IMG/VR virus record: IMGVR_UViG_3300037488_000489
Location: 53,712 to 117,711 of that record
Length of the DNA: 64,000 nt
Reading direction: 5' to 3' (one strand)
From: a virus
Taxonomy: Duplodnaviria > Heunggongvirae > Uroviricota > Caudoviricetes
Shown: piece after piece, positions 2,206 through 59,800 of the stretch
Position numbering within the stretch: position 1 is the first letter of the stretch
Layout: each line of letters opens with the position of its first letter
Made by a program: the position numbers and the translations under genes
The notes under the pieces: model-generated
Told to the model about the DNA's origin: nothing
The model's input: the letters and a program-made list of their open reading frames with translations, nothing else
Databases searched by the model: none

Positions 2206-2404
2206 TCATTGCCCTAATTTCTCTAGGCACTTGTTTAAACCACCACCTTACTTCCATTTCATATTCACGTCCTTGGTCATCAAGTCCCCTAGGATTGATA
2301 AGCCAGAACATGTAATCCTTTCCGTCATGGTTAACAGATCCTTCATACCATATTTCAGTGAAGGATGGTTTTCTGTTAATTTTTACTGTAACTACATTTT
2401 CCAT
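2162..2404 (-). CDS. hypothetical small protein (80 aa)
   Basis: ORF in minus-strand array; no recognizable motif. Confidence 0.4.
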   Translation of the reverse strand: MENVVTVKINRKPSFTEIWYEGSVNHDGKDYMFWLINPRGLDDQGREYEMEVRWWFKQVPREIRAMSEKIINDFKQNQHD

Positions 2405-2405
2405 A

Positions 2406-2720
2406 TTAATAATCTATTTCTTCAGGGTCCCACTTATATCCATATAAGAAATAATCTGGACCACCTATTTTACTTTTATACTTATCTTTTGATGTATAAG
2501 TACGTTTACTAACTAACTCATCTGGTGTCAACACCATAAAGTCAATTCCATATTTAATTTTGATTGGTTCGTTATCATCAATAGACTTCTGTACTTCAAA
2601 GTCACGGAGATGAACTCTTCCCCCAAATTCTGATTTTACTTTAATCTCTTTCATCTTTATCTTTTTTTGTTTTAATGTTATGGCATTCTTCACATAGCAC
2701 TTGTAAGTTTTCTTGTTCAC
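2406..2720 (-). CDS. hypothetical protein (104 aa)
   Basis: ORF in minus-strand array. Confidence 0.45.
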   Translation of the reverse strand: MNKKTYKCYVKNAITLKQKKIKMKEIKVKSEFGGRVHLRDFEVQKSIDDNEPIKIKYGIDFMVLTPDELVSKRTYTSKDKYKSKIGGPDYFLYGYKWDPEEIDY

Positions 2721-3057
2721 AGAACAATCTTTCTACAAATCCTGGAAGGTCTTGTGCAGAATTCAGACTTCCTGCTGGGCAAATATGATCCACGTTGATT
2801 TGTTTCTCTGGAAACCATAATTTACAGCTATTGCATTGATATTCAAACTTTTGTCTCTTGCTGGGACCTTTATAGAGTCTGCGAGCTTTTAATTTACATT
2901 CACTAATAGGTTTCCACCATCTAGATTTCTGTCTCAATCCACTTCTAATGAAACTCCAGAATCCTGACTCTGTCATAGTACCAGCATTCCTAGTTTTAGG
3001 AACTCTTGGTTTTCTAGGAGCAGCAGGCTTTCTTTTGTTTGCTTTTTTCTTTATCAT
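2641..3057 (-). CDS. HNH endonuclease with basic N-terminal tail
   Basis: HNH signature 'CNSCKLWF...VDHICPAG...NLQVLCEECHNIKT' (C..C, DH, N, C..CH). Lys/Arg/Pro-rich N-terminus. Confidence 0.7.
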   Translation of the reverse strand: MIKKKANKRKPAAPRKPRVPKTRNAGTMTESGFWSFIRSGLRQKSRWWKPISECKLKARRLYKGPSKRQKFEYQCNSCKLWFPEKQINVDHICPAGSLNSAQDLPGFVERLFCEQENLQVLCEECHNIKTKKDKDERD

Positions 3058-3107
3058 ACTTTAATTTTAAATAACCCCTGGAGACAAAGTCCCCAGGGAT
3101 TACAAAT

Positions 3108-4679
3108 TTAATCAATTGTAACGATTCTTCCTGAAATTTCTTCTTTAATCTCATCAAGACTTCTAACAATTGTATATACTTCTACAGCTGATAAAGCAGG
3201 TAAATTGAAATCATACTTCTTGGCTTCTGCAGTGAATCCTTCTTTAGCTTTCTCAGCCAAGTTTTGCAATTCGCGAATCGCATAAGACTCATCTAATTGT
3301 AATGTATCAAAGTCTAAGTCATGTAAGATTTCTGTGGCTTCCTCACGTGGCACAGTCATAATTGGTAAATACTCATAGCATCTACCCTTAGACTCACCAA
3401 TACCTACAACCTTCATTGGATTGATTAGTACGAGAACGCTCGTATCACCACAACCTACATAATGAATCTCATCACTGGTAAAGTGTAAACCTTCAGCACC
3501 ACAATCATCAGTATTCCATCTACAGTTTTCCATAGGCATGTTTACTGGTCTACCAATACGGATGTCAAATGTTCTTGTATGAGCATCTGTGAATCTATTC
3601 TCTGCTCTATTAGGCAAATCAAGATATAACTCAGTTAAGTTACCAATCTCTTCACCATATTGAGACTCACAATTCTTGTACACTGTACCAGAACCAGAAC
3701 ACTCTGGACACTCTACATTATCACCATCGTTACAATTAGTATATCCTTCAAACCAATCATCTTCTTCATGATAAGGAACATATCCTGTACCATCACAGAA
3801 TGTACATGGCTCTAGTTCTTCAAATATAGATTTAGCAACCATTTTGTATTCACCGTCCTTTAAGAACACTAAATAATCATCAGGCTTCTTCTTCCATACA
3901 GCTTTCACTTTATTGTAAGCATTACTTACAAAGTGTACAAGCTCAGTAGATCCATGAAGTGTAACAACATTACGAAGAGCTACAAAGAATCCTTGCTTAG
4001 TGATGCTAAAGCTATTCTTCTTTAAGAAGTTATATAACTTATCAGCAACCTCAGCTCTTGGATTCAAGCAACACCACATAAAGAAACGCTTAAGTGCTTG
4101 ATACTCTTCATCTTCTATTACAAGAGCATTCATTTCATCTATATCAGCCATTCCATTAAAAGAATAACTACCAATGATTTCTAAGAACTCTTCTACCATC
4201 AAAGGTGGAATGCTTCTATTGATTCCTTTAAGATATAAACTACCGTGTTTCATCTCAAAATCATCAAACTTAGCTAGGAATTCAGCACCTTTTTGAACAG
4301 CCTTAGCTTTTTCATACTCAGCTTCAGCTTTTCTTCTTGCATCTTTAACTTCCTGCGTACTAACAAGATCAAATAAACAAGCCTCTGTTGTACATCCTCT
4401 AGCAAGATTGAAATCATCAGAAGTTGCTGGAGATTTAGTAATAATGTTACCATCATTCATTACAATAGTCAATGTATCATTAACCATTTTAATGTTTAGA
4501 TAAGGCTTATTTTGTAATGTTGTATTTTCTGTAGTGGTTGAACTCCATTGATAAGGAGAAGAAAGGGTTTGAGCCCCCTCTTCATTATCTAATTCATTGA
4601 ACGCTTGTTCAATTTTGTTTTCTACTACTTTTTCAATTGTGCGTTCTATAGCACTTTTAAACCATTTTAGACTTAACAT
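3108..4679 (-). CDS. hypothetical protein with DnaJ-type CxxCxGxG zinc-finger repeats (523 aa)
   Basis: Two canonical CxxCxGxG motifs 'CTFCDGTGYV' and 'CPECSGSGTV' plus extra Cys pairs. Immediately downstream of the GHKL ATPase gene. Confidence 0.55.
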   Translation of the reverse strand: MLSLKWFKSAIERTIEKVVENKIEQAFNELDNEEGAQTLSSPYQWSSTTTENTTLQNKPYLNIKMVNDTLTIVMNDGNIITKSPATSDDFNLARGCTTEACLFDLVSTQEVKDARRKAEAEYEKAKAVQKGAEFLAKFDDFEMKHGSLYLKGINRSIPPLMVEEFLEIIGSYSFNGMADIDEMNALVIEDEEYQALKRFFMWCCLNPRAEVADKLYNFLKKNSFSITKQGFFVALRNVVTLHGSTELVHFVSNAYNKVKAVWKKKPDDYLVFLKDGEYKMVAKSIFEELEPCTFCDGTGYVPYHEEDDWFEGYTNCNDGDNVECPECSGSGTVYKNCESQYGEEIGNLTELYLDLPNRAENRFTDAHTRTFDIRIGRPVNMPMENCRWNTDDCGAEGLHFTSDEIHYVGCGDTSVLVLINPMKVVGIGESKGRCYEYLPIMTVPREEATEILHDLDFDTLQLDESYAIRELQNLAEKAKEGFTAEAKKYDFNLPALSAVEVYTIVRSLDEIKEEISGRIVTID

Positions 4680-4691
4680 GTTTTTTGTTTT

Positions 4692-7052
4692 TTAAATTGT
4701 TTGTAATTCTTCAATTGTGTCTTCTGTCAATACTTCTTCCAAGGATGCATCCTCATTGAGCTTTATTGTGTAGTGCTCAAGGTTCACCTTGTGTTTATTA
4801 TATTTAAATAGATCAACATACGCTTTTAATAAGTCTTTATCTAATCCACCATAATAAGAACCTACTTGTCCCATTAATGGATTTAAGAACGTGAGCTTTT
4901 TAAATACTTCTTCCACCTGCTTGTACACTACTAGTATCTCCTGATCAAACAAGTTTTGATCTAAAGCTAATTCTAAAATTGCTTCTTTAGTTGTACTGTC
5001 ACAATAAGGTCTAGCATACTTATTACTATATTGTCTTATCACTTCTAACTTATCATAAAGATCTGTAGATATCTGTTTAACAATCTCAGTTCTTCTAAAA
5101 GTTTGACTATAAGTGTTTACCATCTTCTCAACGAGAAGTTGTGTAGCCATTGTTCTAAATGGTCTGTTTTTACCTTCCATAAATTTTTCTAATGTTATCC
5201 AGTTATGTAAATCTGCTTTCTGTAAGTTATCTATTGTAGCTTGTGCAACAATAACAAAGTTTGCTTGGTCACTAAATACAGACCAAAGCTTATCTAGCTT
5301 CTCTCTTTGTTCTTCTTTAGTATATACATGCAGTTTATTAACTTTATGAACATCTTCTAATTTAAATGTTGTAGGAACAAACTTAGAATATCTATCAGAA
5401 TATGTAATCTCTGTCTTGGTACCAACCTTACCAGAGAATTCACCTTTCATTCTAACCTTCTTAATACCATTCACTGTTACAGGATTAGATAACACCTTCA
5501 TTCTTTTAGCTTTCTGAGCATCTATCCATGTCTGTGGAATCTCAATAGCATCTACATCAATAAAATCTTTAGAATATAAACTAATTACATACTGGAATTC
5601 TGTGATGAGTTGTCTCCATTGACTCTTTGGATAGTTCTTAAGACTTAGAATAGAATGATAATACTTATTGTAATCAACAGATTCACCTTTCATTAATTGA
5701 AAAGGTTTTTCTTTTTTTACAAATAAGTGACACTTGCTGCTATCACCAAGTAAGCTTCTCATGTAATCTTGCTTATTCTTAGCAAGTCTATCAGAGAATA
5801 GATAAACATTACCAGCATTGTAAGAACCAATGTCTTGAATTCTTAGGTTACCACCCCAATAATTCTTAGCATTATTGAATCTGTTTCCTTGGTATCTAAA
5901 CTTTATTTGATACTCAGCTAACATGTATTCCTTGTTATGCTCAGCCATTCTCTTAAGATCTAACAACTCTACACCTTCAAGTTTAGGTTGTTTTAAAGGA
6001 ATAGTTGCATACTTAAGAAGCTCGTCAATCTCAATTCTATCTTCTTCTTTTCTATAAAAGCTTGGTAAAGATTTACGTCTATCTCCATAAAAGCTCATAA
6101 TAGAATTAATATCAGCTTTATCAGAAATTGATTCATTGAACTTCTCCATGAATACATCTGCCACCTGAGCTAGCTTTTTAAGAATAACTTGTTTAGCTTC
6201 CTGTGTATATCTGATAGCCTCTCTATTTGGTGTAGGAAACAATCCATCACTAAGACTAAAACGTAAAGCTATTTTGATATTAATCCTTTCAATACCAAGC
6301 TTCTCCCAGTCAATTGGATAGCTAACATTGTCCAAACATAAATGCATGTAATTGTTAGTAGCTATACTAGAGAATTGGAAATGCTCAGCTCTATGAATTG
6401 TGAAATCATTACTAACAGCATAACTGATGCTATTATCTACATCAAAGTATACATTCTCAAAATAAGCTAATTGCTCTTTAATCTTTTGAGTGAAACTGTG
6501 TCTATCATAATAGTTTACAGGTACAATCACCTTAACACCGTTTGGCTCTTCTGTAGCCTTTTCGTACAACAAGTCAATACTATTTGTATCTTCTCCTTCA
6601 TACATCATATACTTGCGTTCCATACCATCTTTTCTAGCTACAAAGTAGAAGCTAGAACTGTAAGCTAGTGGAGCTTTGAAACCTAAGCCCATCATACCTA
6701 ACTCTGTATTGCTATTACGCTTGGTTGATTTACCATACTTACTGATAATGTTAACTACATCATCTGCATCTAAACCAATACCAAAGTCTTCAACAGCAAA
6801 TTCATATGTATCTGCCTGATTATTTCTCTTAAATGAGACAATAATAGGTCTGTCACTCCCAGCTCTTCTGTGACTATCTAGTGCATTGGATGCACATTCT
6901 CTGATAGTAGAGCCTACTGAATCTGAATATAGATTCTTACTTAACATCTGCATCAATACTTGAGCAGAATCTAAGTCTAATGACATTTTCACAGTTTCCT
7001 GTGACTCTCCGTCTTGGAGGATGTGTGCTTCTGTTTGTTTTTCTAAGATCAT
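4692..7052 (-). CDS. GHKL (Bergerat-fold) ATPase, MORC/Hsp90-like, 786 aa
   Basis: N-box 'ECASNALDS', G1 box 'VEDFGIGLDADD', G2 box 'GMMGLGFKA' (GxxGxGFK, MORC/HATPase_c_3-like), all in the N-terminal 130 aa. Confidence 0.65.
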   Translation of the reverse strand: MILEKQTEAHILQDGESQETVKMSLDLDSAQVLMQMLSKNLYSDSVGSTIRECASNALDSHRRAGSDRPIIVSFKRNNQADTYEFAVEDFGIGLDADDVVNIISKYGKSTKRNSNTELGMMGLGFKAPLAYSSSFYFVARKDGMERKYMMYEGEDTNSIDLLYEKATEEPNGVKVIVPVNYYDRHSFTQKIKEQLAYFENVYFDVDNSISYAVSNDFTIHRAEHFQFSSIATNNYMHLCLDNVSYPIDWEKLGIERINIKIALRFSLSDGLFPTPNREAIRYTQEAKQVILKKLAQVADVFMEKFNESISDKADINSIMSFYGDRRKSLPSFYRKEEDRIEIDELLKYATIPLKQPKLEGVELLDLKRMAEHNKEYMLAEYQIKFRYQGNRFNNAKNYWGGNLRIQDIGSYNAGNVYLFSDRLAKNKQDYMRSLLGDSSKCHLFVKKEKPFQLMKGESVDYNKYYHSILSLKNYPKSQWRQLITEFQYVISLYSKDFIDVDAIEIPQTWIDAQKAKRMKVLSNPVTVNGIKKVRMKGEFSGKVGTKTEITYSDRYSKFVPTTFKLEDVHKVNKLHVYTKEEQREKLDKLWSVFSDQANFVIVAQATIDNLQKADLHNWITLEKFMEGKNRPFRTMATQLLVEKMVNTYSQTFRRTEIVKQISTDLYDKLEVIRQYSNKYARPYCDSTTKEAILELALDQNLFDQEILVVYKQVEEVFKKLTFLNPLMGQVGSYYGGLDKDLLKAYVDLFKYNKHKVNLEHYTIKLNEDASLEEVLTEDTIEELQTI

Positions 7053-7054
7053 AA

Positions 7055-7417: not shown

Positions 7418-7429
7418 AATTGTTTTTGT

Positions 7430-8149: not shown

Positions 8150-8150
8150 A

Positions 8151-9919: not shown

Positions 9920-9979
9920 GATTCATGTTTAATAAAAAAGCCCCACATTTCTGTGAGGCTTTTGTTGAGGATTTATATT

Positions 9980-20314: not shown

Positions 20315-20347
20315 GTTTGTGTTTGTTTAATTGTTAATGTTTAATTG

Positions 20348-20758
20348 TGGAGGTGAGGGGAGTTGAACCCCTGTCCAGACAAGTGATAATAATACCATTC
20401 TTACATGCTTAGATCTGAAGCTGTTCATGTACATTTACTTAGAGCAATTACAATGTATTACTACATAGTCCTAAGCACTTCTAATCAGTAGTTGGGATCG
20501 CAGGTCTTGCTATCTACCACCACTCTATTTTGACATAATAGAGAAAACGCTTGTAACTTTCTGTTGCCAGGTTGTTACCACCCCGTTGACTAAGCTGCTA
20601 ATGCATACTCAGTAGCGAAGATAGAAGCTAAGATAGCTTCACCTTCTGCAACACGCTCAGATTGACTCTTTACGGTTATTGTTTAGAACTTGTTTACCTG
20701 TTCCAAGGCTTGCATGTGATACTACCAGCCTCATGTCTGTCAAAGCCAGTACACCCCC
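20348..20758 (-). ncRNA. ssrA: tmRNA (ssrA), phage-encoded
   Basis: Minus strand 5' end GGGGGUGUACUGGCUUUGACAG (consensus GGGGcUGauucUGGaUUcGAC). 3' end GGACAGGGGUUCAACUCCCCUCACCUCCA has a T-arm and 7-bp acceptor with G3:U70. Internal tag frame GCA GAA GGU GAA GCU AUC UUA GCU UCU AUC UUC GCU ACU GAG UAU GCA UUA GCA GCU UAG ends ...ATEYALAA-stop. Confidence 0.8.
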
Positions 20759-23968: not shown

Positions 23969-24066
23969 TCTACAAAGCCTCTGATCAATGAAGTAGAACA
24001 GATAAACTCCTATAATATATGTAATCTTACCTTTGGTACGCTAAAGGCTAATAACGAAAGAATACA

Positions 24067-24381
24067 TTAACGCTTGTAATAATATGGTTTAACGTGCTGT
24101 TGCTTGTAGAAATATTGTTGATCATTAGAAGGACATGTCTGTCTAATAGTTGTACATGACACTAATGATAACATTGCTGCTACAAATGCAAATGTTTTAA
24201 AACTCTTCCAGAAATCTATTTCTTGTCTAAGGTCCTTAATAATAACAAACAATAGACATACAATAGCTGAAAGGATAAATATAACACCTAACATCAAATG
24301 TGATGGTGTTGGTGCTGTAAGTAATAAATAACTACCTGCTGATGAGCTAATAATAGTCATTGATGCGAATACAAATTTCAT
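24067..24381 (-). CDS. small membrane protein (104 aa, about 3 TM)
   Basis: Three hydrophobic stretches and a basic C-terminus. Confidence 0.45.
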   Translation of the reverse strand: MKFVFASMTIISSSAGSYLLLTAPTPSHLMLGVIFILSAIVCLLFVIIKDLRQEIDFWKSFKTFAFVAAMLSLVSCTTIRQTCPSNDQQYFYKQQHVKPYYYKR

Positions 24382-24383
24382 AA

Positions 24384-24611
24384 CTAATTGGTTTTAAATA
24401 ATTTAATAGATTCAAAGTCTTTATCATCCCCAGACATATATATAATAGACATCATCATAAAGTAGAATGCGTAACATATAATGTAAGGAGTGGAAGTAAT
24501 AGCATCTTGGTATACAAATGCAAATCCTGTAACTAATAAGAAGAATAAGACTATAATATAAGGTATAGTCCATAGAGCTAATAAGTTAGCAATGTGTTTG
24601 ATTAAGTTCAT
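24384..24611 (-). CDS. small membrane protein (75 aa, about 2 TM)
   Basis: Hydrophobic segments 'LLALWTIPYIIVLFFLLVTGFAFV' and 'YIICYAFYFMMMSIIYM'. Confidence 0.45.
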   Translation of the reverse strand: MNLIKHIANLLALWTIPYIIVLFFLLVTGFAFVYQDAITSTPYIICYAFYFMMMSIIYMSGDDKDFESIKLFKTN

Positions 24612-24619
24612 GTGTTGTG

Positions 24620-24988
24620 TTATTTAGCTGTGATTGTTAATGTGTTATATCCTAATTCAAGTTCAAATGTAGCATGATAGCAATTAAAGCCCTCTACATC
24701 CTTAATAGTCTCCATAGAAAATGTCTTACCTTGAAACATAAGATGATCATGACCAGTAGTAATAAGATTATCATCTTTATCATAGACACTAATCTTACAC
24801 CATTTATATTCATCATCCCATATCTCATTAGTATGAACTATTCTAATAGAGTCAAATGTTTTTGTTTCTCTCATATAATTGTTATTTAATGCTATATATA
24901 TTGTATTGTATAGCATGATTGATGAATAGTTATTTGGTATACATAAACCATGTGAGGGTGACACACCTATTCTCACATTCACAAACAA
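24620..24988 (-). CDS. hypothetical protein (122 aa)
   Basis: ORF preceded upstream by tandem CCCA(A)CCCTAT(A/G)TA repeats at 25030..25075. Confidence 0.45.
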   Translation of the reverse strand: MFVNVRIGVSPSHGLCIPNNYSSIMLYNTIYIALNNNYMRETKTFDSIRIVHTNEIWDDEYKWCKISVYDKDDNLITTGHDHLMFQGKTFSMETIKDVEGFNCYHATFELELGYNTLTITAK

Positions 24989-25109
24989 ATTGTAAATAGT
25001 GAGAGAGTTTTGTTGTTTTACAAGCCCAACCCTATATAATGTGCCATTATGCCCACCCTATGTATAAAAACAAGAGGACAATCAATTGATTATCCCCTTG
25101 TTAATTAAA

Positions 25110-25550
25110 TTACAATGCAATTAGGTCTTGATGATTAACTGCTTTGGTGCTCACTGCCACGGTCTTTAATTCAGATGCGTTGAATTTAACAACACCTGTT
25201 CCTGGCATACTGATGTAATTGATTCCATTCTGATCTTCAAGGATAGAATAGTCTGCTAACTCAGATAATGTGATGTTCTTAGCTCTAAGGTCTCTACTAA
25301 CAGACTCAGAACAGCTGATGCTAATAGACTCTGGTTGTCCATTCTCAGCAATCTTGCCATTGTACACTAATACTAAGACACGATTGTAAACCATTTCGCC
25401 CTTAGCATTGAGTTTAGTCTCACGCTTTAAGTTAGACGGAATCAAACCTAATGCACCCTTCTCAGTCATAAGGTCTCTAACACTACCGTTGTTAACTAAT
25501 GTAGTTGCTGTTGCAGAAGCTTGGTAAGCTTGGAAAATTGGTAAAGCCAT
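25110..25550 (-). CDS. hypothetical early protein (146 aa)
   Basis: Second ORF of the leftward early operon. Preceded by a terminator and AGGWGGKGTATC repeats. Confidence 0.5.
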   Translation of the reverse strand: MALPIFQAYQASATATTLVNNGSVRDLMTEKGALGLIPSNLKRETKLNAKGEMVYNRVLVLVYNGKIAENGQPESISISCSESVSRDLRAKNITLSELADYSILEDQNGINYISMPGTGVVKFNASELKTVAVSTKAVNHQDLIAL

Positions 25551-25621
25551 AATACTTGGTTGGTTGACCTACACACCATAAGGTTTTTGATTGTTTATTG
25601 TTATGTTAAAATACTCAGGTT

Positions 25622-25647
25622 GCAGGAGGGGTATCAGGTGGTGTATC
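25622..25647. repeat. tandem 12-mer repeat GGAGGGGTATC/AGGTGGTGTATC (AGGWGGKGTATC family)
   Basis: Two adjacent copies. Same family as the two copies at 26232..26274. Confidence 0.6.
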
Positions 25648-25655
25648 TATAAGTT

Positions 25656-25687
25656 GGTGGAAAAAGAGAGAGCTGTTACACTCTCTC
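25656..25687 (-). terminator. rho-independent terminator after first early gene (minus strand)
   Basis: Minus strand reads GAGAGAG-TGTAACAG-CTCTCTC then TTTTT. Lies 6 nt downstream of the stop of 25694..26107. Confidence 0.5.
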
Positions 25688-25693
25688 TTAATT

Positions 25694-26107
25694 CTACAAC
25701 CAAATGTTTTCCTCTTTGACAATAGACTTAACTATTTCAGTCATTCTCAACTCAAACTCATCACTATTCTTACGAGGTTTAGATCCTAATACTGTATTAA
25801 TCCTAATGGTGTTCTTCTTACTATCGTGCTTGTTAAAGTAGATTGTAAGACCATTAGTCTTAATTTTACCATTGCGACCATTATCATCTAATGTCACAAC
25901 AGCCTTGTCCAAACCTAATGCTTCCATTGGTAGCGTTAAGATTGGTAAATTCTCATCAAGGCTTAGTTGATCAGGATAACAGCATTCATCAAGCTTTAAT
26001 TGTTTAAAGCCATCAATCATTCTTGGATTAACAAAGAAATGAGTAATGCCATCTAATGGATTAGTTACCATCATCTTCTTGAAATCATAATAGAACTGCA
26101 TAATCAA
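25694..26107 (-). CDS. hypothetical immediate-early protein (137 aa)
   Basis: First ORF leftward of the divergent control region. Flanked by CAGGTGGGGTATC-type repeats and followed by its own terminator. Confidence 0.5.
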   Translation of the reverse strand: MIMQFYYDFKKMMVTNPLDGITHFFVNPRMIDGFKQLKLDECCYPDQLSLDENLPILTLPMEALGLDKAVVTLDDNGRNGKIKTNGLTIYFNKHDSKKNTIRINTVLGSKPRKNSDEFELRMTEIVKSIVKEENIWL

Positions 26108-26231
26108 AAGTTTTAAAGATTAATAAATTTAGCAAAGTTGTTTTTATCATAAAACTCATCAACCTTGCTAAGGGGCTGATTAAAAAAAAGGTCAATCTTG
26201 CTATTTTAAAGCAGTGTTTGATACTAATGAT

Positions 26232-26274
26232 CAGGTGGGGTATCCCCAACCTCTCAATTCACAGGTGGGGTATC
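26232..26274. repeat. two direct copies of CAGGTGGGGTATC spaced 30 bp apart
   Basis: Exact 13-mer at 26232..26244 and 26262..26274. GC-rich motif in an AT-rich genome. Confidence 0.7.
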
Positions 26275-26988
26275 AAGCAGTAGTACCCTCTCCTCCCTTG
26301 GACAAGGGGGGTTGTTAAGTTGGAAAAAAAATTTTGTAAAATGTTCCACAAGGAACGTTGGGTATAATCATCTGAGGACCAATGGGTTAACATGCCCCTG
26401 TGTTAAATGTTTGCATGAATTTTTCCAAATGTTGCATGCACATTGTGTCACACTTTTTCAAATATTTGTGACATTCTTGTAACATATTTATAGTACTATT
26501 TGTTACAGACTTCCAGGTTTGGCAGTCTTTCACTTCCTAGATTGTCAAGTTTTTGGATCAGGAAACTTGACACATTTGTCCAGTTTTATCAATCAAAATC
26601 TGGACATTTGTCAATCAATAGCTTTACTTTAGTTTACGTTTTGTCAAGCAATTGCTTTACATAATGTGTCTTATAAGGGACATGCTCAGCTTAACAATGT
26701 TGCTTTTATAACACATTAAGATATGTTATGGTATGTAGTGATGGAATGTTGCACCAAAATTATAAACTCTTGTAGTATCAAAATTAGAAAATTCTGCAAG
26801 TTTTGATAATAGCCAAAAATAAATTTGGTGGTTACAAAAAAGTCTTCGTAACTTTGGGGGGGATTTAGGGGGGGCCCTAAGTACATCTAATCAGCTAATA
26901 CACTATCTACAATTTATTGGTAGAATATAATGGATTATAAAAATAGTGCATAATATAGCATTCCTATTCCAGATAACTAAAATAGTTA

Positions 26989-27019
26989 TTTGACAATCAA
27001 AGGAATATACATACCTTTG
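26989..27019 (+). promoter_or_regulatory. Bacteroidetes-type sigma-A promoter (-33 TTG / -7 TACCTTTG) for rightward module
   Basis: TTG at 26989-91, 19-nt spacer, TACCTTTG at 27012-19. Matches the Bacteroidetes consensus TTG-N19-TAnnTTTG. First gene ATG at 27032. Confidence 0.5.
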
Positions 27020-42218: not shown

Positions 42219-44015
42219 ATGTCTTGTTTACCTGGTACACCTTGCTATGACGCTTATTATCATCCTAGTGAAAACTGTGGATGTGCTGAGTGCATTAGTA
42301 ATTCAAATAATGTAATATATGTTGGTCCTAATTTACCAAACTCAGGAGTTCAAAACGGAGACTGCCTAACTCTTACTATAGAAAAATTAGATGATTCTAT
42401 TGGTACAGGTGGTGGAGGAACAGGTACTTCAGGTACGTCTGGTTCTTCTGGCACTCGTGGCACTAGTGGTACATCAGGAACTTCAGGTATCAACGGTACA
42501 CCAGGAGCTGCTGGTACGTCTGGTACGTCTGGTGTTAATGGTACATCTGGTGGTAACGGTACCTCAGGTACTTCTGGTGTAAGTGGTACAAACGGTGCTT
42601 CAGGAACCAGTGGAACATCTGGTGGAAGAGGTGCTGATGGAACAAGTGGTATTAATGGAACAAGTGGTGCAAATGGCACAAGTGGTCTTACAGGAAGTTC
42701 AGGAACTGATGGTTCTTCAGGAACCTCTGGTATAGATGGAACTTCTGGAACAAGTGCCATAGATGGAACTTCTGGCTCAGCTGGAACTTCTGGAATAGAT
42801 GGCACCTCTGGTAGTTCAGGAACTACTGGAACTTCAGGAACCACTGGAACTTCAGGTACATCAGGCTTTGAAGGAGGTCTTGCACAATGGAGATATAATC
42901 CTAGTACAAACACAAACGTTAATCCTGGTGTTACATACTTCACTTTAAATGATGCAAGTTGGTTAGCGTCTGCTTCTCAAATTGCAATCAGTGATTTATC
43001 ATATAATCCTAGTGCTGACTTCTCAGCATATCTAGATGCATTAAACCCTTTCTCAGCACTTAAGCTAGTTAGTACAGTTGATTCTTCTAGATTTAAAATA
43101 TTAGAAATTGTATCTACTTCTCCTTTTGAAGTGGGTTTTGAAAGATTTATAGTTACTCAAACTGCAGCTCAGGGTACGAATCCTGTAAGTGGTGAAACAT
43201 TTATGATAGTTCCTGTAGGTGCTGCTGGTAGTTCAGGCACATCTGGAACAGCTGGTTCTAGCGGTACTACTGGTACATCAGGCACATCTGGAACCACTGG
43301 TACTTCTGGTACAAGTGGAACGTCAGGGACTTCTGGTTCTTCAGGATCTAGTGGTTCTTCAGGATCTAGTGGTACAACAGGCACATCAGGTACAACAGGC
43401 ACATCAGGTACTACTGGTACTAGTGGAACAACTGGTACATCTGGAACCACAGGAACTTCAGGAACCACTGGTACTAGTGGCTCATCTGGTTCTTCAGGAG
43501 CTAGTACAGGCGGAACTAGTGGAACTAGTGGAACTAGTGGCAATAGTGGTAGTTCTGGTACAACAGGTACCTCTGGTAATAGCGGATCTTCAGGAACATC
43601 TGGAACTAGTGGAGCTAATGGAGCAGGATTTAATTCTATTTCTCCTACAACAGCTGGTTATGTACTTACAGCTAATGGAACATCAAATAGTGCAACAGCA
43701 AATTCAGGAGTTACTATTAGTGGTTCTCAATTAAATGCTGGTTCATTTTATGAAACTTCAGATATAAGATTTAAAAATGTATTAGAAACTAATCCATCTA
43801 TAGATTTACCATTAGATGTAATTAAGTTTACAAGAACAGATGAAGAATCTAATCAAGTTAGATATGGTTACTCAGCACAGCAAGTACAATCAGTGCTTCC
43901 AGATTTAGTATCTGGTGATGAGAAACTAGTGGTTAATTATTCAGATGTACATACATTAAAAATAGCAGCCTTAGAAAAACGCATAGCAGAATTAGAAGCT
44001 AAATTAAACCAATAA
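42219..44015 (+). CDS. collagen-like tail fiber with C-terminal intramolecular-chaperone (peptidase S74-like) domain
   Basis: Two blocks of Gly-X-Y triplets (GTSGTSGSSGTRGTS..., about 50 and 45 triplets). C-terminus 'SDIRFKNV...VRYGYSAQQVQSVLPDLV' matches the SD(I/V)R(L/F)K autoprocessing motif. Confidence 0.75.
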   Translation: MSCLPGTPCYDAYYHPSENCGCAECISNSNNVIYVGPNLPNSGVQNGDCLTLTIEKLDDSIGTGGGGTGTSGTSGSSGTRGTSGTSGTSGINGTPGAAGTSGTSGVNGTSGGNGTSGTSGVSGTNGASGTSGTSGGRGADGTSGINGTSGANGTSGLTGSSGTDGSSGTSGIDGTSGTSAIDGTSGSAGTSGIDGTSGSSGTTGTSGTTGTSGTSGFEGGLAQWRYNPSTNTNVNPGVTYFTLNDASWLASASQIAISDLSYNPSADFSAYLDALNPFSALKLVSTVDSSRFKILEIVSTSPFEVGFERFIVTQTAAQGTNPVSGETFMIVPVGAAGSSGTSGTAGSSGTTGTSGTSGTTGTSGTSGTSGTSGSSGSSGSSGSSGTTGTSGTTGTSGTTGTSGTTGTSGTTGTSGTTGTSGSSGSSGASTGGTSGTSGTSGNSGSSGTTGTSGNSGSSGTSGTSGANGAGFNSISPTTAGYVLTANGTSNSATANSGVTISGSQLNAGSFYETSDIRFKNVLETNPSIDLPLDVIKFTRTDEESNQVRYGYSAQQVQSVLPDLVSGDEKLVVNYSDVHTLKIAALEKRIAELEAKLNQ

Positions 44016-50263: not shown

Positions 50264-53200
50264 ATGGCAGAGCAAGAACAAGGAAATATTAGACAGGAAT
50301 TTAGTCTAGGTAGAACTGGACTAAACATGGACTCATCTGTAAATCAGGTTGAGAAGGGTAAGCTTACGTATGCCTTAAATGCATCTGTTGAGAATTTTAG
50401 TGCTACTGCTGTAAACTATCAAAATGAACCAGGTAATGAGTTATGTCTAAACTTTCCTGAGAATTTTCATCTTATTGGAACACATTTTATTCAAGAGAAG
50501 AATCAACATATATTCTTTTTAACTAATCCTGAAACTGGGGCTTCTCAGATTGGATACATGGATAACAACGATTGTATCTATCACATGTACGTAGAAGGAC
50601 TTTGTTTAAACTTTAATATTAACTATCCAATACAAAAAGCTGTACACAAGATTTCAAATTGCAGTACAGAGATTTATTGGACAGATGGATTAAACCCTAG
50701 AAGATATTTAGATCTTGATAACATTCCATATATTACAACTTTTCCAGATGGTGTTATTTGTGATCCTATTGTAACACCAATACTTGATTGTAATAAATTA
50801 AAGATACAACCTAATTTTAGTATTCCAGATTTAGAAGTTGTTGATGTTATTAATGGTGGAGATTTAAAAGCTGGTACATATCAATTTGCTATTCAATATT
50901 GTAGTGCCCAAGGAGATGCATACACTTCTTACTATTCAGTAACTAATCCAACTCCTATTGCTAATCCAAAATTAACCACAGCTAACTTTGATTACGCTGT
51001 AGGTAGATCTATTGTAATTGATATAAGCAATATTGATTTAACAGGATACTTTGAATATTACAATCTAGCTGTAATTAAAACAATAAATGATATCACCTCT
51101 GTTCAATTAGTAGGTACATATTTTATTGATGGTGCTACAAATCAAATTACTTATACAGGACAAGATGTAACAGCTATTAGTTTAGCAATTGCTGATATAT
51201 TTGAAAAGTTTCCGTACTATGAGATTGCACAAGATTTAACAGCTGTACAAGATATTCTTGTATGGGATCAACTTACATCTATTGATAAAATTAATTATCA
51301 AAGTATTGCTAGTAAAATTGATCTTCAATGGCAAACTTACAAAATTCCAGCTGGAGAAACTTACGCTGATGAACTGAATGCTACTAATTTACGTGGATAT
51401 CTACGTGATGAAATATATGCATTTGAAATTGTTTTCTTATTAAGAAATGGTAAGCAAACAGATGGTTTTCATATTCCTGGTAGGGCTGCTACAGCTGATG
51501 ATTTAGTAATTGTTAATAAATCTACAAATGCTGATTTTATTGGTACAGGAACAACTGCTCCTTATTGGAAGATTTATAATACAGCTTCTGTAGTAGGAAC
51601 TGCTATTGGTCCTAATATTGGAAGTGCTACACCTTATGAGTTTGGTAATTTTGCATATTGGGAATCTAATGAGGAATATCCATGTAACACTTTTTTATAT
51701 GGAGATTTAGCTGGACAAAAGATTCGTCATCATAAATTTCCTGATATTCTAGTTAGTCCAATGTTTGAGTCACAAGCTCCAAACTATAATTTTCCAGAAC
51801 TTCAAAAAGCAAATGCTTTATATCCTATTGGTGTTAAAATAAATACACAACAGGTAACATCGTTAATTGATAACTCTAATCTAACAGCTGATCAAAAAGC
51901 TGATATAGTTGCATATAAAATTGTAAGAGGTGATAGGGCTACAAACAAATCTATTGTAGCAAAAGGTATGTTAAGAAATGTTGGTACTTACGAAAGAGAA
52001 GGTACACAATATTACTATCCTAACTATCCTTATAATGACATTAAGACTGATCCATTTTTATTAAAAGATAATAATGCTTATAACGCTCAATGTCAAACAT
52101 TTAAAGTTGTAGTTGCTACAGTTGGTACAATGCAAATAACTGATTGTTATACAGGAGAAGTTACTGCTGTTGCTATGCCTTTAGGAATGACTAGCATATG
52201 TTCTATTACAGTTCCTTTAGTAATTACAGGATCTGCTACATTTACTAATGTTACAGCTGTATCTTATACATTAACTTCTTATCTATCAATTCCTTCAACA
52301 TCTACTACATTTATATATACTGATCCAGTTACACTAGTGAGTGTTAATGTAACTGTTCCAATAAATACTTCAATTACTGTTAGTTCTACAACTGTTCCTA
52401 GTCGTGTAAGTGGATCTCCTAGATATACAATATTAGAGACTACTAATAATAAAAATACAAATTGTTATCCAGTTAATTTAAGTGGATTTGATAATAGTTC
52501 TAAATATAGAATGGTGTTTAATTCACCAGAGACTTCTTTTGGGCAACCTTATTTAGGCAATGTGCTTAAGTTAGAAAGTGCTATGTTTGGAGGGGGTAGA
52601 GCACACTTTGTACAAGTTAAAAATCATGCATTATATAAGTTAATTACTAAACAAGCACAAGTAGATGCTTTAACCTCAAGTTATAATATTGCTAATATAA
52701 CAGCTCCATTTAATGCTACTGCAATGTTCACTGCTTACCAAGCGTATTTAACAATTTATATTAATGGTATTAGCAGAAGAAACTTTACATATTCATTTAA
52801 TTCCACTGCTCAATATGATTATAATGCAGATGTTCAAAACGCTGCTCCTGATGCATTTGGTAACATAGGTGTTAAACAAAGGGAACTTGATTTATATCAA
52901 TATCTTATTCCTGGTTTTCAATCTGTTGGTGATGTTTATAATGTAAATAACTTTCAAAGAGAATCTTCTGTTTATTTAAAAACATTAGATGCTATAACTC
53001 CATTGCCATTTGCTGAACAAACTCCATCTTTAGTGGTTGCTGGAAACAGTTTAATTACTGATGATTCAAGATTTACAATTTCTTCAAGAGATAATTGTGC
53101 TTCTCCAGAGATGCAAGAACCTATTAAAGTGGTATCTTATTATGGGTCTATCAAGAACATAAATATTAATCAGTGGGGACAACTATATTCATATCAAACA

Positions 53201-54895
53201 ATTGATACAGGTTTTCAAAAACATTTGTCTGATGTAGCAGGAGTTGATACTGTATTTGGTGGAGATACATTTATTGGTAGATTTGCTTATAAAACTAAAC
53301 TTCCTTTCTTTATTGATAATAGAGTGGGGGCTCCTGATGATAGTGATATTTTTTATGATGAATTAGGTAATGTTGCCTACCCACAATACTGGTACTCAGC
53401 TAGATCTATACTAAGCAATTATAAAGCTGGTGCAACAATAATGAAAAATATTATATCTATTAAGGCACATTATCTTGATTGCCCTAATGATTATACTTTT
53501 ATAAGTAATACTACTACTACTACTTCTACTACAGCTGCTCCAGGTAGTACATCTTTGAGTGATGCAACCTATTCATATGACGGTAAGATGTATCTATTTG
53601 CTTATGGTATTCCTTATTACTATGTAGAAAGTTCTATAAATGTAGACTTGCGTCAAGCATTTAATAACTTAGAAGGTGATTACTATCCACACGTGAGCTC
53701 AGGTATTCCTGATAACTGGTTACAACAATCTGTTGTTCCAATTCAGTTTGACAATACATATACATATAATGTAACGTATTCAAAACAGAATAAAGAAAAC
53801 TTCTTCTCTCACTTACCTGTAGATTTTGATGACGACCAATGTTATACAAGCTTTCCATTCAGAGCAGTTTATTCTGAGGCACAAGCAGATAATCCAAGCG
53901 TAAGAGTAAATAGTTGGTTAAATTATAAACCTGTAGCATTCTTTGATTTTCCTCAAAACTATGGCAAGTTAACATCACTAGATGGTATTCAAAATAAAGC
54001 TGTGTTAGCTAGATTTGAGAATAAGTCATTGTTATACAACACGTTGTTAACAATGAATACAAGTAATCCTCAAGCTGCTTATTTAGGCAATCCTTCTTTA
54101 TTTAGATCTGCTCCTCCAATTGATTTTGCTGAGACAGACCTTGGATATGTAGGAAGTCAAAATAAGTTCTTATTAAAGATTCCTAATGGACAAGTGACTA
54201 TAGATGCCAAGAGAGGACAAGTATTTCTTATTAATGGAATGGGTGGTCAAATACAAGACTTATCTGCATTTGGTTCAGGACTTAATAAGTTCTTTACAGA
54301 CCATCTAGCATTTGAAATCTTACGTTACTATCCTAATGCTGATACAGATAATCATTTTAATGCTTGTGGTTTACATGGTGTATATGATAGTAAGTATGAT
54401 AGAATCATTATTTCTAAACTTGATTATATTCCTCAACCAGCATATGCAAGTGTTATTAAATATGATGAGTTGACAGGTGAATATTATATTGATAAAGCTT
54501 ATGGTGATTTATCTTTAAGAAAGGTAGTTAGTTTAACAGACAGACAATACTTCTGTAATAAGTCGTGGACTTTATCATACAGTGTAAATATACAAAGCTG
54601 GGTTAGTTTTCATAGTTATATTCCTAACTGGTACATAGCAGAAAATAACTTCTTCTACTCAGGACTGAATGAAGGATGTGACTTAGAAGCTATTGCTGTT
54701 ATGGAGATTCCTAGCCCAACTACTACAACTACAACAACGATAGTATTAAATTGTAATTTAGATGGTACAGCAGTATATGGTACAACAACTACTACAACAA
54801 CTCCTACTCCTCCTAATTGTACATTAACTGCAGGAAGTGCTGTTGTAGTAACAAGTGATTGTACATTAACTGCTGGAACAGCTATTCTCCAATAA
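50264..54895 (+). CDS. giant virion protein (1543 aa), probable tail/baseplate host-recognition protein with poly-Thr linkers
   Basis: Single uninterrupted ORF. Several poly-Thr linkers ('TTTTSTTAAPGST', 'SPTTTTTTTIVLNCN', 'TTTTTTTPTPPNCTL'). C-terminal duplicated 'CTLTAG(S/T)A' motif. Confidence 0.55.
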   Translation: MAEQEQGNIRQEFSLGRTGLNMDSSVNQVEKGKLTYALNASVENFSATAVNYQNEPGNELCLNFPENFHLIGTHFIQEKNQHIFFLTNPETGASQIGYMDNNDCIYHMYVEGLCLNFNINYPIQKAVHKISNCSTEIYWTDGLNPRRYLDLDNIPYITTFPDGVICDPIVTPILDCNKLKIQPNFSIPDLEVVDVINGGDLKAGTYQFAIQYCSAQGDAYTSYYSVTNPTPIANPKLTTANFDYAVGRSIVIDISNIDLTGYFEYYNLAVIKTINDITSVQLVGTYFIDGATNQITYTGQDVTAISLAIADIFEKFPYYEIAQDLTAVQDILVWDQLTSIDKINYQSIASKIDLQWQTYKIPAGETYADELNATNLRGYLRDEIYAFEIVFLLRNGKQTDGFHIPGRAATADDLVIVNKSTNADFIGTGTTAPYWKIYNTASVVGTAIGPNIGSATPYEFGNFAYWESNEEYPCNTFLYGDLAGQKIRHHKFPDILVSPMFESQAPNYNFPELQKANALYPIGVKINTQQVTSLIDNSNLTADQKADIVAYKIVRGDRATNKSIVAKGMLRNVGTYEREGTQYYYPNYPYNDIKTDPFLLKDNNAYNAQCQTFKVVVATVGTMQITDCYTGEVTAVAMPLGMTSICSITVPLVITGSATFTNVTAVSYTLTSYLSIPSTSTTFIYTDPVTLVSVNVTVPINTSITVSSTTVPSRVSGSPRYTILETTNNKNTNCYPVNLSGFDNSSKYRMVFNSPETSFGQPYLGNVLKLESAMFGGGRAHFVQVKNHALYKLITKQAQVDALTSSYNIANITAPFNATAMFTAYQAYLTIYINGISRRNFTYSFNSTAQYDYNADVQNAAPDAFGNIGVKQRELDLYQYLIPGFQSVGDVYNVNNFQRESSVYLKTLDAITPLPFAEQTPSLVVAGNSLITDDSRFTISSRDNCASPEMQEPIKVVSYYGSIKNININQWGQLYSYQTIDTGFQKHLSDVAGVDTVFGGDTFIGRFAYKTKLPFFIDNRVGAPDDSDIFYDELGNVAYPQYWYSARSILSNYKAGATIMKNIISIKAHYLDCPNDYTFISNTTTTTSTTAAPGSTSLSDATYSYDGKMYLFAYGIPYYYVESSINVDLRQAFNNLEGDYYPHVSSGIPDNWLQQSVVPIQFDNTYTYNVTYSKQNKENFFSHLPVDFDDDQCYTSFPFRAVYSEAQADNPSVRVNSWLNYKPVAFFDFPQNYGKLTSLDGIQNKAVLARFENKSLLYNTLLTMNTSNPQAAYLGNPSLFRSAPPIDFAETDLGYVGSQNKFLLKIPNGQVTIDAKRGQVFLINGMGGQIQDLSAFGSGLNKFFTDHLAFEILRYYPNADTDNHFNACGLHGVYDSKYDRIIISKLDYIPQPAYASVIKYDELTGEYYIDKAYGDLSLRKVVSLTDRQYFCNKSWTLSYSVNIQSWVSFHSYIPNWYIAENNFFYSGLNEGCDLEAIAVMEIPSPTTTTTTTIVLNCNLDGTAVYGTTTTTTTPTPPNCTLTAGSAVVVTSDCTLTAGTAILQ

Positions 54896-55968: not shown

Positions 55969-56835
55969 ATGTCTAAAACAGTAATAATAAAATTAACAGG
56001 AGCTGGAAACAGAACAGGACCATTCAACATCTATGATGATTTGGGTAATGTTTTGGGCACAGCTGTGTCCAAAGATAATATTATTGATGGATACACAGTG
56101 AGCGTTGCTGATGCAGTTACTGCAATTATTATAGAATCTATAGGCAAATGTACTACTAGTATAGAAGTGAATATTACAACAATGACTGTTGAACAAATAG
56201 CTGCTGTTGTATACACTCCAATCAATACACCTTCTTTATGGAGACATCTTACTAATACAACTATTTATAATAAATATTATGATGTTGTAGAGCCTTATAT
56301 TATTGAATATCCATTCTCATATCAATCATATGATGAGATACTTCAGAATGTAAAAGACTATACAAAAGCTTATAAATATCTACCTATTCCAGATGGTGTA
56401 TTTAATGATAATGCTCAGATAGAAACAGATAACCATTGGTTCAATAAAGCAGTATTATATAACGGTCAACAGTCTACAGGTGTATTAGAATTGGTACCAA
56501 AACCAATTAACAACCTAAAAGCCTATTTACAATATCCTTTATATAATGCTGAGAGTAAAACTATCATGTATACTAAATCTGATAATTTTTATCAGTATAA
56601 TACTTTTTGGAGTTTAGTTAAAAATAAAGCCGTACCTTTGTTTACGGTGAGCTGTGAGTCATTATCAATAGACAAGATTGTAAATCAAGCTAATATGGAT
56701 TACGGAAAAAGATCATATAAAAAAGAACCTTTAAGAGCTAAAGAACTTAAGGTGAGACACATTCTTGATAATACATCAGAGGCTCAATTAGTATCTCAAT
56801 TCATTATTACACCATCTCAAATCTCGTTCAAATAA
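55969..56835 (+). CDS. tail appendage protein with type-B N-terminal anchor module (288 aa)
   Basis: N-terminus 'LTGAGNRTGPFNIYDD...' is the third member of the type-B family. Confidence 0.5.
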   Translation: MSKTVIIKLTGAGNRTGPFNIYDDLGNVLGTAVSKDNIIDGYTVSVADAVTAIIIESIGKCTTSIEVNITTMTVEQIAAVVYTPINTPSLWRHLTNTTIYNKYYDVVEPYIIEYPFSYQSYDEILQNVKDYTKAYKYLPIPDGVFNDNAQIETDNHWFNKAVLYNGQQSTGVLELVPKPINNLKAYLQYPLYNAESKTIMYTKSDNFYQYNTFWSLVKNKAVPLFTVSCESLSIDKIVNQANMDYGKRSYKKEPLRAKELKVRHILDNTSEAQLVSQFIITPSQISFK

Positions 56836-59800
56836 TGGCTAAGTGGTTAGATAAATATGAACAAGGAGGCTTGGTTCTAAAGAAAAAGACCAAGGATAAC
56901 TTTGACTTAAAAGCTAATCCTAATGATGTAAAAGCATCCGTAGGTCCTGGTTACGTAGGAGATGGTTATGATACAACAGGTAGAAACTATTCTCCTGCAT
57001 GGGGGGGTCAGTTTCAGGATGGTGGTGCACTTCCTGAGGTGACAGTATATGGACATAGAAATCCAAGTGCAAAAGCTTACTTTGACAGATGGAGAAAAGA
57101 AGCTGAATCATGGCAAGATCGTGAGTCACCTGTAAATAGTCCTATGTCTTCCTATCTTGCAGGAGAACAGATGTATACTAAATATAAAGGTCATGATATA
57201 AAAATGCTTGATGAACAAGATAGACCTATGCTTAGCGTTACTCCTTTTGGTGATACTTTACAAATACATAATCCAGAAAGTGATTATCGTGGTGATTCAC
57301 TTATTAGTGAACTAGCTCATAAAGTACAATTAAATAAAAAAGGTAATCTAGGATTTATTAAATCACATATTGGTAATGATTACTTAAACACATTAAAGAA
57401 CATGAGTTTAAGTGATATATTTAATGCAGACTCATGGAAAAGTGCATATGATAAAAACTATTATGCTCCAGGTACTCAAGAATATGAAGCTCATTCTATT
57501 ATTGAACCTAAGTTGAGAGAAGAGTTTAAAGTATTAGCTGATAAAGAATATGAGAAGCTCACTCCTAGTAAAAAGAAAGCTATGGGTGGAAATATTCCAG
57601 GTACTGTAGGATTCACATACGCACGCACAGCTGGCTCAGCTCCTGCTAATGGTAAGTATACTAAGAAGACTAAAGCAAGTGCTCAGAATGGAAAGAAGTT
57701 GTATGGTGCAACTGATGAAGAAGAAGAGAGTGTTAAAAACTTTGCAAAAAATTATTATGCATCTGACAGATTTAAAGAAAATCTTTATGATAAAGGAAAT
57801 TTTGGAATTAAAGATAGATCAGCTCAAGTTAGTAAAGATGCAATTAATAAAATTAATAATTTAAGTTATACTTACAAACCACTTGATCGTACAGGATTTG
57901 ATAAAGGAAACATAATAAATATGGGTAATCCTAATGAGTATTTAAATGCACCTAAGGATTTGGCATTTGCTCATGAGATGTTTCATCCAATGGAAACTGA
58001 AATATTATCATCACAGCCTAGAAATGTGATGGTGATGTTAAACCATAACGCTTTGAAAAATAGAAAGGGAGATGCAAATGCTTTATATCAAGATATGGTA
58101 GATCCTCTACCAACATATATAGGTGGTGTTGCTCATTATCTTCCAGTTGGTGATAAGATACAACATGAAATAAAAGATTTTGCTACTAACGAACAAAGCC
58201 TTTCTAGTACGTCAATGCATGATGATTTAATTGGAGAAGTTAGAGCAGACATAATGGCTCTTAGATATTTGGCAAACAAGAAAGGAATATGGGATGTAAC
58301 TAAATCAGGAGTTAAAGATATGACTCCTGAGATGTTAAATGAATTATATAAATCTCCAGAGTTAAATAAACAGATGTATAAATCAAGTTCATCTGGAAAA
58401 ACAACATATCTACCATCTAAAAAAGCTAAAGAACCAGGAAGTTTAAAAGCAGTTGATCCTCCTAAAAATCCAGGATTAATGCTAGATAGACTTAGACAAA
58501 GATATTCTGATGCAGACTTATTATATTTAATGAATAAGCTTGCTTATGAAAGTAACAATCAAGATCAAACAATTGCTCAGAATGGTAAAGAAATGGCTTT
58601 CTACCAAAATGGATTAGATTTTAAACCTAAGAGCATTAGTCAAAATGGTGTAAAGAAAAGCAAGAAGTCTGAGCCTGAAGTTTCACCATATAAACCAGTA
58701 GATGCAAGCAATGCTAATACAATTAGATCTCTTATTCCAGCACCTTTAAATATTTCTCAAGCACTAGCTAAAACTATTGCTAGTGAAGCAAGGTTAAATG
58801 AGACATCATTAGATGATGATCAGAAATTAATACTATGGAATACAATACAGAATGCTAGAAAAAGATCTGGTAAACAAACTGGTGGTGGAACACAGTATTC
58901 TGATTATGGTGATCAAGGATACGGAACAGGTGAAGACTTTGATAATTGGTTTAATCGTGGAAAGATAGGAGCATTAAGTGGTGTATATAATAGTTTAACA
59001 AATCCAGGATTTGTAATGGCTAGTACTGTTGGTAGAGGACGTTATTGGACAGATCCAGAAAATCCAGATGATATAAACTATACAGATGTATATGACTGGA
59101 ATACTAGTGAGAAGAATTATAAAGGTGGTAATGCTTATCAGAAGATAAGAAATCTAGTAAGGTCAAATGAAGATAAGAGTTTGAATAAAACTAAGAATGA
59201 TAAGACCAGAATGAATATTCATCTTACTAAGAAAGAGATTGATGATATAAAAGCAAGAAAAGAAATGAAACTTAGTAGTCTTATTGCTTTTGATGAAGGT
59301 GGTGTAATAAAAGATGACATGGGTCAATGGGCTCATCCAGGTGAGATAACAGAGATAGGTTCTAATAACATTACTATGCAGGGAGTTGACTATCCTGTTC
59401 TTGGTGTATCTGATACAGGTGATACGCAAATGATGTATCCTGGAGAAGATTACAACTTTGATGGTAACAAGGTTACAGAGTTTCCTATGATGGAGAAAGG
59501 TGGATGGTTAGATAAATACAAAGCTCAAAGTGGTGAAACAGTAGCACCATATGGTAGTCTTCAAGGAGATTTACCACCAGTGACAGTTACTTCTAGTAAA
59601 CCATCTAAGTGGGGCAGTATGAAGTTTGCTCCATATGATCCTAGTAATCAACCTACTATTTCTCAATGGAATCCTAAACCAGGAGAAATAGAAGCAATGG
59701 CTGCTGCAGAACAAGCTAGAAGAGATGAAGAGAATAGTTTTTATAATAATAAACATATCAAAGCTCTTCGTAATAGTGCATTTGCTGATTGGAGGCCTTA

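Follow-up and report, generated by a model that had tools for sequence, protein, structure and literature searches.

An rIIA-rIIB gene pair in the replication module of an uncultured, distant crAss-like phage

We analysed a window of 64,000 nucleotides (nt) from a virus of the Caudoviricetes (positions 53,712 to 117,711 of IMG/VR record IMGVR_UViG_3300037488_000489), with the focus on two consecutive genes encoding proteins of 786 and 523 amino acids (aa). The two genes very probably form an rIIA-rIIB counter-defence module, with the HNH endonuclease and PD-(D/E)XK nuclease genes downstream being independent genes of the replication/recombination module. An earlier description made from the letters alone (the sequence-only reading) had listed a co-oriented cluster of a MORC/Hsp90-like GHKL ATPase, a DnaJ-type zinc-finger protein and an HNH endonuclease, next to a RecB/Cas4-like PD-(D/E)XK nuclease, and had suggested an uncharacterized counter-defence or DNA-processing module. 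The open reading frames (ORFs) and motifs it described are all present, all on the minus strand, and counter-defence, as had been guessed, is the role that PMC11879866 and PMC10312443 document for rIIA-rIIB in coliphages including T4 and N4. The module is, however, not uncharacterized, as rIIA-rIIB is annotated in thousands of phage genomes. For annotation this means a correction, the apparent GHKL-nuclease system becoming the classic rIIA-rIIB pair beside ordinary replication-module nucleases. The features of the pair are as follows.

4692..7052, minus strand: rIIA homologue, 786 aa, first ORF of the run
3108..4679, minus strand: rIIB homologue, 523 aa, start codon 12 nt past the rIIA stop codon
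3666..3827, minus strand: presumed zinc-knuckle loop in rIIB (residues 285-338), with two CxxCxGxG motifs
3071..3103, minus strand: terminator-like hairpin from RNA folding, directly past the rIIB stop codon

The 786-aa protein was matched by phrog_612 (RIIA lysis inhibitor) with an E-value of 2.2e-58, residues 1-748 aligning with positions 1-721 of the 725 in the profile, and six more RIIA/RIIB PHROGs matched as well. T4 rIIA is 22% identical to it (E 6e-19) and colinear from residue 1 to ~309, whereas the C-terminal half is recognisable against T4 by profile only. A search with this protein returned 2637 phage records, mostly annotated rIIA. Because homologues number in the thousands, the window genes are real and not chance ORFs; a near-identity DNA search of window positions 1-12000 against phage records gave no match, and an exact-sequence look-up of the 523-aa protein in assemblies gave no record.

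The full Bergerat ATPase signature that had been noticed in the 786-aa protein was confirmed, with an N box (E52-CASN56-ALD59), a G1 box (D89-F-G-I-G93) and a G2 box (G119-MMGLGFK126). Residues E52, N56, D59, D89, G91, G93, G119, G122, G124 and K126 are invariant in the rIIA alignment including T4. As these include the catalytic Glu, the Mg-binding Asn and the residues of the glycine boxes, rIIA is likely, judging from its sequence, to be an active ATPase. The G2 box had also been called typical of MORC/HATPase_c_3, which did not hold: Pfam HATPase_c_3 and HATPase_c score the protein equally, both just below threshold, and T4 rIIA has a G2 box of the same GxxGxGxK pattern. Fold comparison gave scores of 13.3 for GRP94, 13.2 for ParE, 13.0 for TRAP1, 12.9 for Topo VI-B, 11.5 for MORC2, 11.4 for SMCHD1, about 11 for MutL and PMS1, and 7.5 or less for histidine kinases. 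rIIA favours no subfamily of the dimerising GHKL (GHL) ATPases (Hsp90/GRP94, GyrB/ParE, Topo VI-B, MutL, MORC, SMCHD1), and a MORC-specific assignment was rejected, as the protein scores no closer to MORC than to other GHL ATPases. The alignments span 190-280 residues, so that a second domain equivalent to the transducer/middle domain is also common to rIIA and the GHKL ATPases. The architecture is therefore a GHKL ATPase with a transducer-like second domain at residues ~1-310 (nt 6123..7052), then a long C-terminal region. In contrast to the dimerising GHL ATPases, rIIA has no Toprim, CW, S5-specific or client-binding domain and has this long phage-specific C-terminal region instead.

For the 523-aa protein, hhalign aligned residues 57-447 with T4 residues 73-311 at a probability of 99.8% and an E-value of 1.1e-29, the window side being a profile built from 106 sequences and the other side the T4 rIIB family. 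BLASTP against T4 rIIB gave two colinear high-scoring segment pairs (2e-6 and 2e-4), and three PHROG RIIB families (609, 11221 and 36818) matched with E-values of 1e-13 to 2e-6; the phrog_609 profile matches both window proteins. An AlphaFold2 (AF2) model of the protein had a predicted local distance difference test (pLDDT) score of 79.8 and a predicted template modelling (pTM) score of 0.71. The Foldseek comparison proposed by the sequence-only reading, run with this model against BFVD, returned 31 viral matches at E<=1e-3 (best 1.9e-25), of which those with a description were almost all RIIB, among them N4-like as well as T4-like proteins and one of 1049 aa from RB43 that carries the annotation RIIA-RIIB. 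Other libraries yielded little for rIIB. PF26926 (Phage_T4_rIIB) matched distant window-family members faintly, the Pfam copy giving no match even for T4 rIIB itself; Pfam and NCBIfam returned nothing of use except sub-threshold zinc-finger matches; and the PDB gave one chance-level match for the single sequence (E 0.28) and nothing at E<=10 for the family profile. No solved rIIA or rIIB structure was among the matches in the PDB copy.

The two genes stay together over long evolutionary distances, so that the sequence-only reading withstands the check on conservation of the pair that it had set itself. We compared the window with 81 related loci (rIIB 53-90% identical), which share the order primase, DUF932, uracil-DNA glycosylase (UDG), rIIA, rIIB, HNH, small genes and nuclease, in a replication module that also holds helicase, DNA polymerase and ribonucleotide reductase genes. 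rIIA lies upstream of rIIB in 76 of the 81 loci; the other five had no rIIA match, and in each of them the locus starts less than 500 nt away from rIIB. Among more distant loci, L090 has rIIA (29% identity), two small genes, rIIB (25.5%) and DNA polymerase A, and in L091 the C-terminus of rIIA is directly upstream of rIIB. The order is rIIA, rIIB, UDG in cr116_1 (Crassvirales) and rIIA, rIIB, denB.1, denB in T4, rIIA-then-rIIB being kept from the window lineage to both. The lineage, which counts more than 2000 protein clusters at 90% identity, is a large and abundant group of environmental crAss-like phages, and rIIAB is a lasting part of its replication module. Two irregular rIIA genes were noted: in cr116_1 (L088, 2327..5533) an intron-type endonuclease gene splits rIIA, and in L089 (3807..6195) rIIA appears as two separate ORFs (460 and 327 aa), the near-identical L090 having one ORF of 779 aa.

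The host phage is an uncultured, distant crAss-like phage rather than a T4-like myovirus. Its terminase, portal, capsid and giant virion proteins match crAss-type PHROGs, and the large terminase subunit is 40% identical to that of Leptolyngbya phage Lbo-JY46 and 33% identical to those of Cellulophaga phages phi17:2 and phi4:1. rIIA/rIIB are also found in other crAss-like phages, for instance cr116_1 and IAS virus, under the annotation 'protector from prophage-induced early lysis', a name that the T4 proteins carry as well, besides 'lysis inhibitor'. The replication module of cr116_1 resembles that of the window in holding primase, rIIA, rIIB, UDG and a homologous PD-(D/E)XK exonuclease, and the C-terminal core of rIIB in these phages is 27-30% identical to window rIIB. 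cr116_1 differs in that its rIIB is shorter, with 320 aa and no zinc knuckle, its rIIA is split, the surrounding order is another one and its HNH gene is unrelated.

The hairpin directly past the rIIB stop codon consists of a 15-bp stem and a 3-nt loop followed by UUAUUU. Its folding energy is -24.4 kcal/mol (z = -5.3), a stability that none of 200 shuffles reached. Of 57 distinct lineage loci (within L003-L083), 55 have a counterpart folding at -10 kcal/mol or below, and its stem sequences differ among sublineages, the structure being kept and the sequence not, which makes it a clean case of compensatory turnover. This presence in nearly all relatives with different stems fits the pattern of a conserved terminator, and transcription of the unit holding rIIA-rIIB probably ends at the hairpin. 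A simple terminator scan did not list it, its T-run being too short; it was found by folding. Beyond it lie the following genes.

2641..3057, minus strand: HNH endonuclease, 138 aa, neighbour gene, rII-module membership not supported
2406..2720, minus strand: small ORF, 104 aa, between the HNH gene and the nuclease, GTG start
between the HNH gene and the nuclease, minus strand: second small ORF, 80 aa
1126..2205, minus strand: PD-(D/E)XK exonuclease, 359 aa, crAss-type replication-module neighbour

The 138-aa protein carries the beta-beta-alpha-metal motif of HNH endonucleases (CNSC, H91 and CEEC-H126-N) and was matched by phrog_1985 (E 3.8e-24) and by 12 other PHROG families, 11 annotated HNH, with a borderline Pfam HNH score (21.3 bits, cut-off 21.4). 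It had been described as an HNH nuclease with a basic tail; the motif is there, but the basic stretch is N-terminal (11 K/R within the first 30 residues). Likewise, a nuclease does lie beyond what had been called a small gene, but there are two small ORFs rather than one. Read from its GTG start, the 104-aa ORF shares 80 nt with the HNH gene, and it is detectable in just 20 of the 81 related loci; either the real start is placed further downstream, or the gene itself is variable or doubtful.

GHKL-plus-nuclease systems occur among prokaryotic conflict systems, and the cluster could accordingly be read as a single conflict or DNA-processing system of GHKL ATPase, zinc-finger protein, HNH nuclease and possibly PD-(D/E)XK nuclease, in which the ATPase regulates the nuclease or nucleases. 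The HNH gene adjoins the 3´ end of rIIB in 80 of the 81 lineage loci at 43-92% identity, usually above the identity of rIIA or rIIB to the window proteins in the same locus, which speaks for such a system and also led us to reject the HNH gene as a homing endonuclease that comes and goes. However, all 81 loci represent one collinear phage lineage, so that the adjacency of rIIB and HNH is inherited gene order, and the strong, conserved hairpin stands between the two genes. Homologues of the HNH protein (37-47% identity) occur in 815 phage records, and the three that we inspected, in Bas94, StenR_269 and Vibrio phage 275E43-1, lie in replication modules beside exonucleases with no rII within 6 kb. 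Conversely, no homologue of the window HNH adjoins the distant rIIA-rIIB pairs of L090, L091, cr116_1 and T4. On the grounds of the hairpin, the homologues found elsewhere and the distant pairs, we rejected HNH as a functional partner of rII.

The 359-aa nuclease argues in the same direction. It has a D224...D239-L-K241 motif and was matched by phrog_412 'exonuclease VIII' (E 4e-14) and by NCBIfam RecE (E 8e-6), and it is homologous to the 'PD-(D/E)XK superfamily exonuclease' of cr116_1 (E 2e-8, with D...DxK aligned). Pfam gave no direct match to the window protein; its L090 homologue matched DUF3799 (PDDEXK-like) with 35.5 bits at a cut-off of 26. It is thus a RecE/exonuclease VIII-like, DUF3799-type protein, the standard exonuclease of the crAss replication module. 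In several relatives, insertions of 1-2 kb separate it from the HNH gene, and in distant relatives it is still part of the module, at a distance of several kb from rIIB. The placing of both nucleases in one module with the pair was therefore not borne out, as what had been seen is lineage-specific synteny, and we consider a single GHKL-nuclease system very unlikely.

The core of rIIB comprises residues 57-447 (nt 3339..4511), and comparison of a T4-type family of 117 sequences with a window-type family of 107 sequences picked out a small set of positions that even very distant rIIB proteins share: F199, N206-P207, F218, G230, R/K236, D365, G376, G397-L398-H399, P421, K431 and R433. The likeness of the window pair to T4 rIIA/rIIB thus includes gene order, the first ~310 colinear rIIA residues and this rIIB core, with GLH, P421, K431 and R433 in common. 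T4 rIIB, in contrast, matches HTH_7, HTH_28 and HTH_29 at residues 7-50, with a Sigma70_r4 match also falling in this N-terminal helix-turn-helix (HTH), whereas no HTH match was found in window rIIB at E<=10 and its N-terminus is modelled by AF2 as one long helix and a disordered linker. Window rIIB further differs from the T4 protein in ~125 extra residues, including the zinc knuckle, between T4 positions 217 and 221, and in a helical C-terminal extension of ~75 residues (residues 448-523).

These differences bear on the proposal that rIIB is chiefly a transcription regulator, modulated by rIIA, as T4-type rIIB is viewed in PMC7824862, where rIIB orthologues are listed as specific transcription factors. 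The HTH_7, HTH_28 and Sigma70_r4 matches in the T4 N-terminal HTH suit this proposal. Since window rIIB has no HTH, however, the T4 HTH lies outside the shared rIIB core and is not part of what is universal; the part common to all rIIB proteins is the non-HTH core, and window rIIB is strongly acidic, with a net charge of -35. We regard a chiefly regulatory rIIB as very unlikely too. As a minor novelty, rIIB of this lineage has other N-terminal elements in place of the HTH and has acquired a zinc knuckle. It is also very unlikely that the pair is a divergent type II/type IIB topoisomerase-like or other DNA-manipulating machine, with rIIA as the ATPase and rIIB as the DNA-handling subunit, which we rejected, as no Toprim, Spo11 or winged-helix domain was found in the partner; Toprim was looked for in the proteins of the cluster and none was found, in line with the earlier statement that this is not an obvious topoisomerase II.

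The description of the 523-aa protein as a DnaJ-type zinc-finger protein captured one element of it. The protein has exactly two CxxCxGxG motifs (C292-TFCDGTG and C324-PECSGSG), which give it a likeness to DnaJ and anti-TRAP, and the four cysteines (C292, C295, C324 and C327) presumably form one single zinc knuckle. However, DnaJ has four CxxCxGxG repeats, two zinc centres and a J domain, compared with two repeats and no J domain in window rIIB, and the Pfam scores were below the cut-offs (DnaJ_CXXCXGXG, PF00684, 15.9 bits versus 32.7; Anti-TRAP, 16.9 versus 32). The loop segment 285-338 is occupied in ~3% of 105 full-length family representatives, and the motif occurs in just 2 of 107. Among the 81 loci, two motifs are found in 56, a single one in 17 and none in 8, with a spacing between motifs of 15-32 residues. 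Some close relatives have lost the insert, and in some the loop is acidic and free of Cys. The window loop itself holds 14 D/E and 1 K/R, and AF2 confidence is low across it. From these sequence features the insert is best described as a clade-specific zinc-knuckle in a surface loop of rIIB, not as a DnaJ-type protein. As a surface insertion it is more likely to be an element of specificity or stability than a catalytic part.

A weak structural lead concerns the rIIB core, whose resemblance to the ADP-ribosyltransferase (ART) fold is plausible. The segment in question comprises approximately residues 230-282 and 343-443, in which H399, P421, K431, R433, D365 and R/K236 are conserved in both rIIB types. 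The proteins named in connection with it are PARP15, PARP10, PARP4 and PARP1, tankyrases, TreTu and TreX, Tpt1/KptA, Arr, AcrF11, diphtheria toxin, pertussis toxin, exotoxin A, scabin, Tne2 and TccC3. Searches of domain libraries and PDB profiles gave no sequence-level support for it, no Glu is conserved across the T4-type and window-type families, and a literature search for rIIB and ADP-ribosyltransferase found no paper linking them. Actual NAD+-linked chemistry of rIIB is unlikely. If the fold did reflect NAD+/ADP-ribose chemistry or binding, rII would join a GHKL ATPase to an ART-like module by which a component of the host or of a defence system is modified or sensed, an outcome that we rate as improbable. 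The lead applies to the rIIB family generally and not to the window alone, is testable in T4, where genetics is easy, and would, if true, supply a concrete biochemical hypothesis for a question that is ~70 years old.

As to counter-defence by the rIIA-rIIB pair, PMC7824862 describes rIIA as a GHKL domain followed by a C-terminus that varies and places it in a counter-defence system that is poorly understood, and PMC11879866 likewise calls the mechanism of rII poorly understood. Functionally, rIIA and rIIB are defined by the need for them on hosts with RexAB-type exclusion and by the rapid lysis that mutants show. Divergent rII modules (<40% identity) of T4, MM02, EdH4, SUSP1 and N4 are required against lambda RexAB and otherwise dispensable (PMC11879866), a requirement on RexAB hosts that is also cited to bioRxiv 10.1101/2025.11.20.689424 and PMC8594841, and N4-like phages carry rIIAB (PMC8594841). 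Expression of rIIB on its own is toxic, and rIIB by itself sets off a bacterial gasdermin/CARD system; T6 that has lost rIIB escapes such a system and becomes sensitive to RexAB (PMC10312443). By analogy with T4, T6, N4 and other coliphages, the window pair would act early in infection as a counter-defence module. It would keep the infected cell alive against abortive infection by a RexAB-type system, encoded by a prophage or the host, that would otherwise depolarise the membrane, and would probably be dispensable where no such system is present. We propose that rIIA may be an ATP-driven, dimerising GHKL clamp, because its nucleotide-binding and catalytic residues are intact and its second domain aligns with the transducer/middle domain of Hsp90, topo II, MutL and MORC; rIIB would supply the conserved core domain, and the two proteins would work as one unit. 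Membrane anchoring through transmembrane helices was rejected, as none is predicted in either protein, which speaks neither for nor against the reported membrane association of T4 rII proteins.

Several points weigh against this interpretation. The counter-defence role is transferred by analogy across 20-30% sequence identity, and no Rex-like system is known for this phage. The locus lies within the replication module, and a DNA-linked role may be possible. The activity of window rIIB could differ, given the missing HTH, the ~125 extra residues and the C-terminal extension, and the tighter conservation of HNH and its adjacency in 80 of 81 loci could reflect function and not inherited order.

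Some further features of the window were noted. GC skew and coding strand switch at about 24000..27000, with replication genes occupying the minus strand on the left side and packaging and structural genes the plus strand on the right, a layout of divergent modules that is typical of crAss-like phages. On the plus strand, 42219..44015 encodes a 598-aa tail-fibre protein with matches to collagen-like repeats and lies at the window's one GC-rich bin (40%, versus about 33% elsewhere). Two giant ORFs, also on the plus strand, are at 50264..54895 (1543 aa) and 56835..61394 (1519 aa). The 1543-aa ORF matches PHROG 'virion structural protein' families (E 8.5e-103), and a large protein at a comparable position in StenR_269 is annotated as a virion-associated RNA polymerase. 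Lastly, the minus strand carries a phage transfer-messenger RNA at 20345..20758, for which ARAGORN gave the tag peptide VKSQSERVAEGEAILASIFATEYALAA followed by a stop, and which matched the full Rfam RF00023 model with E 2e-32 and 87.1 bits, the gathering score being 47.

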